This document shows, in pieces, positions 3,044 to 17,514 of a DNA stretch of 29,955 nucleotides. The number at the start of each line of letters is the position of its first letter. Within the stretch, counting starts at the first letter, position 1. This DNA comes from Candidatus Bathyarchaeota archaeon. GTDB lineage: Archaea; Thermoproteota; Bathyarchaeia; RBG-16-48-13; JAGMEO01. The stretch is taken from NCBI GenBank assembly GCA_023128135.1, contig JAGMEO010000001.1:1-29955 (forward strand), in the 5' to 3' direction. Below the pieces are notes generated by a model, which was not told the origin of the DNA, ran no database searches, and saw nothing but the letters and a program-made list of their open reading frames with translations. A program made the position numbers and the translations under genes.

Positions 3044-3158
3044 TTCATCACCTAAAGATAATGTGTTTATGAGTAACTTCTATTAAAGAAATTCAGTGTT
3101 AATCGCTATCAACTTTTTAAATTATGAGATCTGTGTTTTTATCTCTAGTCGTGATTTT

Positions 3159-3692
3159 ATGTCCGAAGAAATAATTGAAGCAAGTTTCAAAAAAAGCGGA
3201 GTCATAATTCCATCTCAAAAAGACGCTGATCTTTTGTATAAAAGCGGCTATGGGATTTTACATAAACAAGATGAAGGATCAATTTTAGGATCATGCGAAA
3301 CACTTCACTTAGTTGCTGAGAAACGGCTTCATGTAATTGATAATGAGAACCGTAAGGAACTAAATTTCCCAACGCTGCTTGAAAAGTTCCGAAGTAAAGA
3401 TGCAGAGATATGGACTAGATACCTAATTTACAGGGATCTTAGAAGTAGAGGCTATGTTGTTAGAGACGGATTCAGCTTTGGGATAGATTTCCGTTTATAC
3501 GAACGAGGCAAATATGGGGAACAAGCTGCAAAGTATATTGTCTTTGGTATATGTGAAGGAATTCCGACACCTATCAAGAAGCTTAGTGAGATTCTTCGAT
3601 TCGTTCAAAGTACAAAAAAGAGTCTCATTCTTGCGGTTGTGGATAGGAGAGGTGAGATCGTGTATTATTCACTTTCTAAACTTACTTTTTAA
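3159..3692 (+). CDS. endA: tRNA splicing endonuclease subunit, probably the structural (beta) subunit
   Basis: YLIYRDLRSRGYVVRDGFSFGIDFRLYERG and LILAVVDRRGEIVYY match the EndA C-terminal domain. The catalytic His position reads EQAAKY instead of xHSxY/HAxY. ATG 3159 chosen as start. Confidence 0.88.
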   Translation: MSEEIIEASFKKSGVIIPSQKDADLLYKSGYGILHKQDEGSILGSCETLHLVAEKRLHVIDNENRKELNFPTLLEKFRSKDAEIWTRYLIYRDLRSRGYVVRDGFSFGIDFRLYERGKYGEQAAKYIVFGICEGIPTPIKKLSEILRFVQSTKKSLILAVVDRRGEIVYYSLSKLTF

Positions 3693-4572: not shown

Positions 4573-4671
4573 TGGCGGGCCCGCGGGGAATTGAACCCCG
4601 GATCTGCAGCTATCTTCCATGGGGGGTATCATTAGGAGGCTGCTGCCTTATCCAGACTAGGCCACGGGCCC
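4573..4671 (-). tRNA. tRNA-Arg(CCU) with 21-nt canonical intron (4612-4632); CCA encoded
   Basis: GGGCCCG-TG-GCCT..AGGC-A-GCAGC-CT-CCT-A|ATGATACCCCCCATGGAAGAT|A-GCTGC-AGATC-CGGGG-TTCAATT-CCCCG-CGGGCCC-G-CCA. Confidence 0.93.
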
Positions 4672-4781: not shown

Positions 4782-4812
4782 TTCGGCAGGAGCGAATAGT
4801 TACTCACTCCTT
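4782..4812 (-). other. tRNA intron in the 3' strand of the acceptor stem (68/69), strict hBHBh'
   Basis: AAGGAGTGAGTAACTATTCGCTCCTGCCGAA. Central helix CGGC/GCCG, bulges CA|A and AA|G, 10-bp inner hairpin AGGAGTGAGT/ATTCGCTCCT, outer CC/GG. Confidence 0.9.
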
Positions 4813-4842
4813 TGGCCGGGATTTGAACCCGGGTCGAGCGGG

Positions 4843-4855
4843 ATCTGCGTTTTTT
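4843..4855 (-). other. Canonical 37/38 tRNA intron (BHL type, 13 nt)
   Basis: AAAAAACGCAGAT. CTGT/GCAG helix, bulges CG|A and AT|C. Confidence 0.88.
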
Positions 4856-5009
4856 CGACAGCCACTCATGTTAGACCTGACTGCACCACCAGGGCTATAT
4901 TTGATATGATGATTAGAAATTTGGAACTATATAGCTTATTTAAGCATTTACATACCTTTCCATCTCCCAAAAACATCAAAGAAAATAATTTTTGGTCCCG
5001 CGGGAGCGA

Positions 5010-5039
5010 GTTTCAGCTAAACATTAAATTGATTATGCT
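5010..5039 (-). other. T-loop tRNA intron at 59/60 (30 nt)
   Basis: AGCATAATCAATTTAATGTTTAGCTGAAAC. Helix TTCA/TGAA, bulges AA|A and AC|T, outer helix is the T-stem. Confidence 0.88.
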
Positions 5040-5061
5040 TTTGAACGCCCGACACTCCGGT

Positions 5062-5107
5062 GTCTGTTAGCTTGGTATGTTAAGTTTTGTCTATCTAAGG
5101 TAGACAT
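5062..5107 (-). other. Canonical 37/38 tRNA intron (46 nt, possibly a composite of two)
   Basis: CTGT/ACAG helix, bulges AG|A and AC|A. Confidence 0.85.
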
Positions 5108-5114
5108 CTACAGC

Positions 5115-5145
5115 GTCTCCGTCCTTTTCATTTGAAAAAGTGGCT
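5115..5145 (-). other. tRNA intron at 30/31 (31 nt)
   Basis: AGCCACTTTTTCAAATGAAAAGGACGGAGAC. Helix CTTC/GGAG, bulges CG|A and AC|G, inner hairpin CTTTTTC/GAAAAGG. Confidence 0.87.
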
Positions 5146-5201
5146 CGGAAGCTCTACCAAGCTGAGCTACCGCGGGATAAATCAAAGAAAATGAAAATTG
5201 G

Positions 5202-5215
5202 CATATAAATCTTCT
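5202..5215 (-). promoter_or_regulatory. Putative BRE/TATA for tRNA-Tyr
   Basis: Minus strand AAGAAGA-TTTATATG about 26-33 nt upstream of C1 (5176). Confidence 0.5.
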
Positions 5216-5339: not shown

Positions 5340-5416
5340 GGGCCCGTAGCTCAGCAAGGAAGAGCACCGGGCTTTTAACCCGGTGGTCCTGGGTTCAATT
5401 CCCAGCGGGCTCACCA
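5340..5416 (+). tRNA. tRNA-Lys(UUU), intron-less; CCA encoded
   Basis: GGGCCCG-TA-GCTC..GAGC-A-CCGGG-CT-TTT-AA-CCCGG-TGGTC-CTGGG-TTCAATT-CCCAG-CGGGCTC-A-CCA. Confidence 0.96.
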
Positions 5417-17412: not shown

Positions 17413-17514
17413 TGGCGCCGGGAAAGGGATTTGAACCCCTGAGATCCCAAAGGATCACAGACTCCCCTGATTTTTTCTCAAGGCCTGCGCTTTTATCCAC
17501 TCAGCCATCCCGGC
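17413..17514 (-). tRNA. tRNA-Ser(UGA) with 13-nt canonical intron (17464-17476); CCA encoded
   Basis: GCCGGGA..CAGGC-CT-TGA-G|AAAAAATCAGGGG|A-GTCTG, long variable arm GATCC/GGATC, G73. BHL helix CTTG/CAGG. Confidence 0.93.

Follow-up and report, generated by a model that had tools for sequence, protein, structure and literature searches.

A three-intron tRNA-Tyr gene of Bathyarchaeia and the conserved complementarity between its canonical intron and the D-loop

The minus strand of the window, i.e., the whole stretch of 29,955 nucleotides analysed here (contig JAGMEO010000001.1 of a Candidatus Bathyarchaeota archaeon), most probably carries a functional tRNA-Tyr(GUA) gene interrupted by three BHB introns, the first two of which are coupled by a predicted helix between intron 2 and the D-loop that favours excision at 30/31 first. 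Transcription, probably from a TATA-like promoter of its own, would give a precursor of approximately 184 nt, from which a heteromeric (alpha-beta)2 endonuclease would excise the three introns before RtcB joins the exons, as the splicing motifs and the genes suggest. In the precursor, 9 nt close to the 3' end of intron 2 are predicted to pair with the D-loop. This pairing would block the D-stem and the anticodon stem and leave nt 23-30 free for the 30/31 motif. After excision of intron 1, the anticodon stem could close and the canonical 37/38 motif would be presented.

The gene is 184 nt long and runs from position 5176 (C1) down to 4993 (the A of the encoded CCA, 4993-4995), its 5' end reading CCCGCGG-UA-GCUC and its 3' end CCGCGGG-A-CCA. 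The introns measure 31, 46 and 30 nt, lie at positions 30/31, 37/38 and 59/60 and make up 107 of the 184 nt (58%), in agreement with what had been proposed from the sequence alone. Exon 1 (5146-5176; gene 1-31) holds tRNA nt 1-30, that is, the 5' strand of the acceptor stem, the D-arm with nucleotide 17a in its loop, and nt 27-30. It is followed by intron 1 (5115-5145; gene 32-62) and by exon 2 (5108-5114; gene 63-69), only 7 nt long, which consists of G31 and C32-G37 with the anticodon GUA inside. Intron 2 (5062-5107; gene 70-115) occupies the canonical site, and exon 3 (5040-5061; gene 116-137; tRNA 38-59) separates it from intron 3 (5010-5039; gene 138-167). Exon 4 (4993-5009; gene 168-184) supplies tRNA 60-73 plus CCA. 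All these features are on the minus strand, as is a TATA-box-like motif, TTTATATG (5202-5209), read by eye as a putative promoter 26-33 nt upstream of C1; T-runs were read 3' of the CCA.

The assignment is based on orthologues and on the spliced 77-mer, which ARAGORN calls as tRNA-Tyr(gta) with a regular cloverleaf, stems of 7/4/5/5 bp and the T-loop TTCAAAT. The C1-G72 pair, A73 and CCA are all present, and the sequence-only reading was thus right that splicing restores the T-loop and the C1-G72/A73 features. C1-G72 together with A73 is the identity set of archaeal and eukaryal TyrRS. When the window was scanned with ARAGORN and Rfam, neither program reported the unspliced gene, and among partly spliced intermediates ARAGORN gave a call only where the non-canonical introns were already out. 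The gene is another instance of how standard finders can lose an essential tRNA.

In a BHB motif the last six exon bases before the intron comprise one strand of the 4-nt helix and two bulge bases, and the last six intron bases mirror them. Introns were defined by a 4-bp helix between two 3-nt bulges, each strand being cut after the second base of its bulge, and all three predicted introns have this arrangement, each with a helix and flanking bulges of its own as had been noted before. In intron 1 the central helix is C25UUC28:GGAG, with one G-U pair and the bulges CG/A and AC/G (slashes mark the cuts). Its outer helix is 2 bp long (G24-C32, A23-U33) and its inner hairpin, CUUUUU/GAAAAG, has a C-A mismatch at the second pair. 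The use of nt 25-28 by this motif, claimed earlier, is confirmed; these bases include the last base of the D-stem and two of the anticodon stem. From 5' to 3', intron 2 consists of a hairpin, a spacer, the segment complementary to the D-loop and ACAG, which pairs with C32-U35 in the central helix C32UGU35:ACAG (bulges AG/A and AC/A). Its inner helix is 2 bp long and its outer helix is the anticodon stem, contiguous only once intron 1 has been removed, just as the earlier statement that the 37/38 motif needs the spliced anticodon stem would have it. Intron 3 has the central helix U54UCA57:UGAA and the bulges AA/A and AC/U, uses the T-stem as outer helix, and has an inner helix of 2 bp followed by A-A. 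Compared with the strict hBHBh' form, the flanking helices of all three introns are relaxed. A perfect 5-bp hairpin, GACAC-CGGA-GUGUC (5051-5065, minus strand; gene 112-126), links the variable loop with the 3' end of intron 2 and is seen in the minimum-energy fold; relatives have GAAAC at this place, and the hairpin is therefore probably incidental.

A search of 40 related genomes retrieved an orthologue from a congener, 95% identical and with eight of the nine differences in introns, as well as orthologues across the family, the order and the class. At the family and class levels 52-53 of 54 compared exon positions (tRNA 1-53) are identical. A pattern scan of public genomes extended the set; the pattern, being too permissive, also matched many bacterial sequences by chance, and only archaeal hits that parse as tRNA-Tyr were used. 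Nearly all of the latter are labelled Bathyarchaeia or Bathyarchaeota, three being labelled Nitrososphaeria or Nitrososphaerales. The central helix is paired in all genes having the respective intron, 39/39 for 30/31 and 47/47 for 37/38, and at 59/60 it is fully paired in 18 of 23 genes, the remaining five having one mismatch. Compensatory changes are found in the inner helices of introns 1 and 3, with 3-9 pair types per position; the inner-helix pairs of intron 1 are formed in 29-39 of the 39 genes, pairs 1-6 in 30-39, with up to nine pair types per position, and the pattern in intron 3 (20 distinct introns) is similar.

Near-invariant exons next to introns that have diverged but keep their motifs, with compensatory changes, exclude chance and decay. 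A decaying pseudogene riddled with insertions might well go undetected by standard finders, and with an incomplete assembly another tRNA-Tyr copy could be missing. This explanation is nevertheless scarcely conceivable, given that the cloverleaf is perfect after splicing, that the diverging introns keep their motifs across genus, family and class, and that no second tRNA-Tyr(GUA) was detected in the assembly (620 kb in 121 contigs, estimated to be 76% complete).

The tRNA-Tyr genes of Bathyarchaeia contain from one to four introns, at shared sites. Among 47 parsed genes, eight have the 37/38 intron only, 15 have 30/31 + 37/38, ten have the window type (30/31 + 37/38 + 59/60) and a single one has 30/31 + 37/38 + 53/54. 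Four introns are present in 13 genes, in 12 of them with an extra 53/54 intron (L006, L010, L022, L023, L045, L063, L064, L065, L099, L108, L118 and L139, all with 30/31 + 37/38 + 53/54 + 59/60) and in one (L111) with a variable-region intron replacing that at 53/54. Site 37/38 is occupied in all 47 genes, 30/31 in 39, 59/60 in 23 and 53/54 in 14. The 53/54 intron combines a long, perfect inner helix with a central helix that carries a conserved A-G mismatch (CGCA vs GGCG).

Conservation of the canonical intron extends well past Bathyarchaeia. In a phylum-wide search, tRNA-Tyr genes of other classes matched a Bathyarchaeia gene with just one intron from end to end, with the intron being part of the match and 73-87% identity. 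Such deep conservation is unusual for an archaeal tRNA intron. In the genes of other classes (L143-L172) the whole 37/38 intron is kept, with the 5' hairpin, YAGC, the D-loop complement and ACAG, and the architecture of intron 2 is retained in all 37 distinct single-intron genes aligned (class and phylum relatives).

Within intron 2, UACCAAGCU (5069-5077, minus strand, 9 nt) is the perfect complement of the D-loop AGCUUGGUA (5155-5163, minus strand; A14-A21). This is the longest such match among the 28 tRNA genes of the genome, in which 3-5 nt is typical. The D-loop helix belongs to the minimum-free-energy fold of the precursor and is the dominant predicted conformer, at a cost of approximately 0 kcal/mol. 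The segment has the consensus CUNCYRRGC in 47/47 Bathyarchaeia genes, the same block occurs in 30/30 tRNA-Tyr genes parsed from the phylum-wide search, and covariation with the D-loop is seen in every phylum-wide orthologue that was parsed. In 46 Bathyarchaeia genes the pair at position 17 is C-G in 22, U-A in 22 and U-G in two, and that at position 20 is U-A in 32, C-G in seven, A-U in three, U-G in three and a mismatch in one; none of 10000 shuffles matched the observed pairing. In the alignment of 37 distinct single-intron genes 98.2% of the cells of the D-loop helix are paired, both sides have changed in two pairs and one side in four, and the support for the helix equals that for the anticodon stem. 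For the whole structure tested on this alignment, the observed values were reached by 0/500 shuffles, and sliding the partners against each other collapses the pairing. Since the helix is kept in all phylum-wide tRNA-Tyr genes examined, the intron sequence must be under selection for something.

Two other structures were considered for the same block and rejected. An internal hairpin, AGCCU-ACC-AGGCU, is contradicted by its 3' half tracking the D-loop while its 5' half is constant, and by insertions of 1-3 nt in its middle. A guide RNA of the box C/D type would need motifs that intron 2 does not have, neither RUGAUGA nor CUGA being found in it in the window gene or in the aligned orthologues (the sole CUGA of the gene is in the central helix of intron 3), and an H/ACA-type pocket is likewise missing from intron 2. 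These absences also weigh on the idea that the excised, probably circularised intron 2 pairs in trans with tRNA-Tyr, or with tRNAs having the same D-loop, as a guide or regulator. In favour of this, the pairing is under selection, the cis helix would be topologically incompatible with a splicing-competent 37/38 fold, and archaeal intron-encoded guides do exist, such as the box C/D intron of tRNA-Trp (cited in PMC4090602). On the other hand, the segment follows the D-loop sequence of the gene in which it lies, lineage-specific changes of U20 to A or C included, as pairing in cis predicts directly, and we consider action in trans very unlikely.

The two modules of intron 2, a 5' hairpin and a 3' conserved block, could also suggest that the 46 nt are in fact two introns, tandem or nested, and a few relatives have a duplicated ACAG/GCAG motif at the 3' end. 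In L075 and L169 this duplicated 3' splice motif (ACAG-CC ... GCAG-AA) resembles a small insertion or a nested mini-intron close to the 3' splice site. However, the window intron contains no internal 4-bp helix with two 3-nt bulges, the layout forms one conserved unit of 42-61 nt in all orthologues parsed (47 + 30), and the D-loop pairing already explains the 3' block, which makes a pair of introns extremely improbable.

Directly 5' of the D-loop block most genes have YAGC, complementary to the invariant G31-G34, and the insertions of 1-3 nt sit exactly between the two blocks. In the window gene and its congener YAGC is missing and the D-loop helix alone is kept. Minimum-energy folds of relatives show a three-way junction in which the D-loop is splinted to nt 31-34 and nt 23-30 are looped out. 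Both blocks together would splint the D-loop to nt 31-34 in the folding model, looping out the very nt 23-30 at which the 30/31 intron is inserted. When the D-loop helix was scrambled or deleted in silico, the cost of the 30/31 motif rose from 5.6 to 8.8 kcal/mol (by approximately 3), in 33 of 34 genes. The suggestion that the helix of YAGC with G31-G34 makes the 30/31 motif cheaper was dropped, as abolishing it brought no rise in cost (5.6 vs 5.0 kcal/mol); any role of YAGC as a flanking helix is a structural inference from the predicted folds.

Lineages in which the 30/31 intron is absent conserve the segment to the same degree, and helping intron 1 was therefore not the original role of the segment. 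It might be that the canonical tRNA-Tyr intron of Thermoproteota is a folding scaffold, whose 3' block holds the D-loop in a clamp and does the same to nt 31-34 in most lineages, so that the precursor adopts a non-cloverleaf fold with nt 23-30 looped out; the 30/31 intron of Bathyarchaeia would then sit in the resulting loop and need intron 2. We regard this extension as tentative and rather doubtful. If true, it would mean an obligatory splicing order encoded in the RNA and would assign a concrete function to an archaeal tRNA intron.

The order of splicing was approached by forcing the core of each motif (four pairs and six unpaired bulge bases) and comparing ensemble free energies. The nearest-neighbour folding model penalises bulges and leaves the enzyme out; in it every motif costs free energy (2.6-7.7 kcal/mol), and in its minimum-energy fold the helix of intron 1 is one base out of register. 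At 37 °C the cost of the 30/31 core of the window gene is 6.0 kcal/mol in the full precursor and 10.8 with intron 2 removed first, that of the 37/38 core 7.7 kcal/mol in the full precursor and 6.3 after removal of intron 1, and that of the 59/60 core 2.6 kcal/mol in the full precursor and 2.6-3.3 across all intermediates. The directions are unchanged at 70 °C. For 39 orthologues the mean cost at 30/31 goes from 5.5 to 8.1 kcal/mol after loss of intron 2 (approximately +2.6; the sign held in 38/39) and that at 37/38 from 11.1 to 7.2 kcal/mol after loss of intron 1 (approximately -3.9; 37/39), the signs having been counted by hand from the per-gene table. The genes are related, and p-values across orthologues for this reason overstate the support.

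Folding of the partly spliced intermediates, which the sequence-only reading had named as a check, shifts the costs as its proposed order of 30/31 before 37/38 predicts. The direction of that proposal stands in the constraint folding, the energies amounting to a thermodynamic preference rather than to an order shown to be obligatory. The proposal had also left out the D-loop-pairing segment, the feature that affects the prediction most. In the folding model, then, 30/31 before 37/38 appears as the favoured order and not as a proven obligatory one, and the T-loop intron at 59/60 behaves as structurally independent of introns 1 and 2. The D-loop helix forms a pseudoknot with the anticodon stem and with the central helix of 37/38 (ViennaRNA cannot evaluate their coexistence) and would therefore have to open before intron 2 is cut in the canonical form.

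Another possibility is that the gene and its introns are real but have no order of removal: a relaxed endonuclease would cut the six sites independently of one another whenever the RNA breathes, with the segment serving an unrelated purpose. Heteromeric EndA enzymes do accept relaxed motifs (PMC4090602, PMC5829648), the gaps between intermediates of the window gene are just 1.4-4.8 kcal/mol, the segment is present in single-intron lineages, and the 37/38 motif is not consistently affected when the segment is scrambled (p = 0.17). Against this, the direction of the effect is shared by 37-38 of the 39 orthologues. Moreover, with intron 1 in place the 37/38 motif would have a 1-bp outer and a 2-bp inner helix, poorer than any described relaxed class, and ordered removal has a precedent (PMC9602550). 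We judge independent cutting somewhat improbable and prefer coupled introns with 30/31 leaving first.

Forced splicing order is, as an idea, already published (PMC8450103; experimental case, PMC9602550). tRNAscan-SE 2.0 works iteratively, as one intron sometimes must leave before the motif of a second can form (PMC8450103). In the red alga Cyanidioschyzon merolae, tRNA-Ile(UAU) has three introns, at 12/13, 37/38 and 53/54 (PMC3728597, PMC9602550), and RT-PCR shows no intermediate from which the anticodon intron has left first, the D-arm and T-arm introns being removed earlier (PMC9602550). The likeness to the window gene consists in a single gene having introns in its D-arm, anticodon arm and T-arm and in non-canonical introns leaving before the anticodon intron, as is predicted here. 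The C. merolae gene differs in being eukaryotic and nuclear, in having its introns at other positions, and in that its order was established by experiment, whereas the order for the window gene is computed.

Multi-intron archaeal tRNA genes are already known, and the window gene extends them to Bathyarchaeia. They have been described in Thermoproteales (Pyrobaculum, Thermofilum, Caldivirga) and Thaumarchaeota (Sugahara et al., 2007, 2008, as cited in PMC4033280 and PMC8450103). As far as these are summarised there, they share with the window gene a heteromeric (alpha-beta)2 EndA and the property of being missed by ordinary tRNA finders. The lineage studied here is instead one of Bathyarchaeia from cold seep or marine sediment; its tRNA-Tyr genes reuse four sites (30/31, 37/38, 53/54, 59/60) in contrast to the scattered sites of the former, and its canonical intron has a covarying segment that pairs with the D-loop. 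No published description of an intron-to-D-loop pairing was found in a search outside which much of the older literature lies. The conserved intron of euryarchaeal pre-tRNA-Trp, a box C/D intron antisense to an exon of its own tRNA, offers a partial likeness in the form cited in PMC4090602; intron 2 of the window gene differs from it in having no C/D boxes and in targeting the D-loop rather than the anticodon arm.

The published maximum used to be three introns per tRNA gene (PMC4033280, PMC8450103) and is now five, according to a preprint on Asgard archaea, where tRNA genes have up to five intervening sequences and many are missed by annotation (bioRxiv 10.64898/2026.10.13.758758). The four introns of some Bathyarchaeia relatives are consequently not a record. 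The Asgard genes resemble the window gene in having several intervening sequences each and belong to a different phylum; the preprint is a census and includes neither intron-to-D-loop pairing nor splicing order. The conserved intron-to-D-loop pairing is the part most worth experiment. It bears on why archaeal tRNA introns persist, and a 9-bp helix with natural compensatory variants is a simple, mutable handle on whether an intron steers precursor folding and splicing order.

The enzymes expected for such a gene are partly encoded in the same genome. Two EndA paralogues (PF01974) are present, one catalytic and one without the catalytic His. The former, an alpha-type subunit on contig C67, has its match among the catalytic subunits of heterotetrameric crenarchaeal enzymes (3p1z_B, 2.6e-43) and keeps the Tyr/His/Lys context. 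The latter, with the character of a structural beta-type subunit, is encoded in the window itself (3096-3692, plus strand), 1.3 kb from the tRNA-Tyr gene; it is 28% identical to the C67 protein and its best match is the EndA-like half of 5x89. Judged by these sequences, the pair is an (alpha-beta)2 arrangement, i.e., a broad-specificity endonuclease appears to be encoded. Enzymes of this type have been linked to non-canonical and multiple introns, and they cleave relaxed motifs that have no outer or inner helix (PMC4090602, PMC5829648). RtcB had no match in the window's own assembly (620 kb, 76% complete), which, the assembly being incomplete, is no evidence of absence, and it was found in the congener and in two other members of the family. 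In the congener it comes in two pieces (G001 C27:20614-21756, profile 53-426, and C148:7064-7231, profile 1-53), possibly because the gene is split, contains an intron or was broken in assembly; C27, with the larger piece, also carries the tRNA-Tyr gene of the congener.

Searches of sequencing runs for RNA reads of the locus, two in number, returned DNA metagenomes only, and the metatranscriptomes listed shared no sampled word with it; the runs in which the window DNA occurs are cold-seep and marine-sediment metagenomes. The neighbours of the tRNA-Tyr gene include genes for a class I aminoacyl-tRNA synthetase and a UbiA-family protein, three further tRNA genes, rpoB and rpoA. A cluster of tRNA genes, mostly with introns, was noticed at 4808-4895, 4576-4671, 17416-17514 and 2013-2120 on the minus strand and at 5340-5413 on the plus strand; that at 4808-4895 has an acceptor stem that fails to close and for this reason scores too low for the Rfam threshold. 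In a second intron-containing tRNA gene of this genome, located outside the window (G000 C56:7637-7749), the 7-nt intron sequence CCAAGCU is complementary to the gene's own D-loop AGCUUGG, and D-loop pairing may thus extend beyond tRNA-Tyr.
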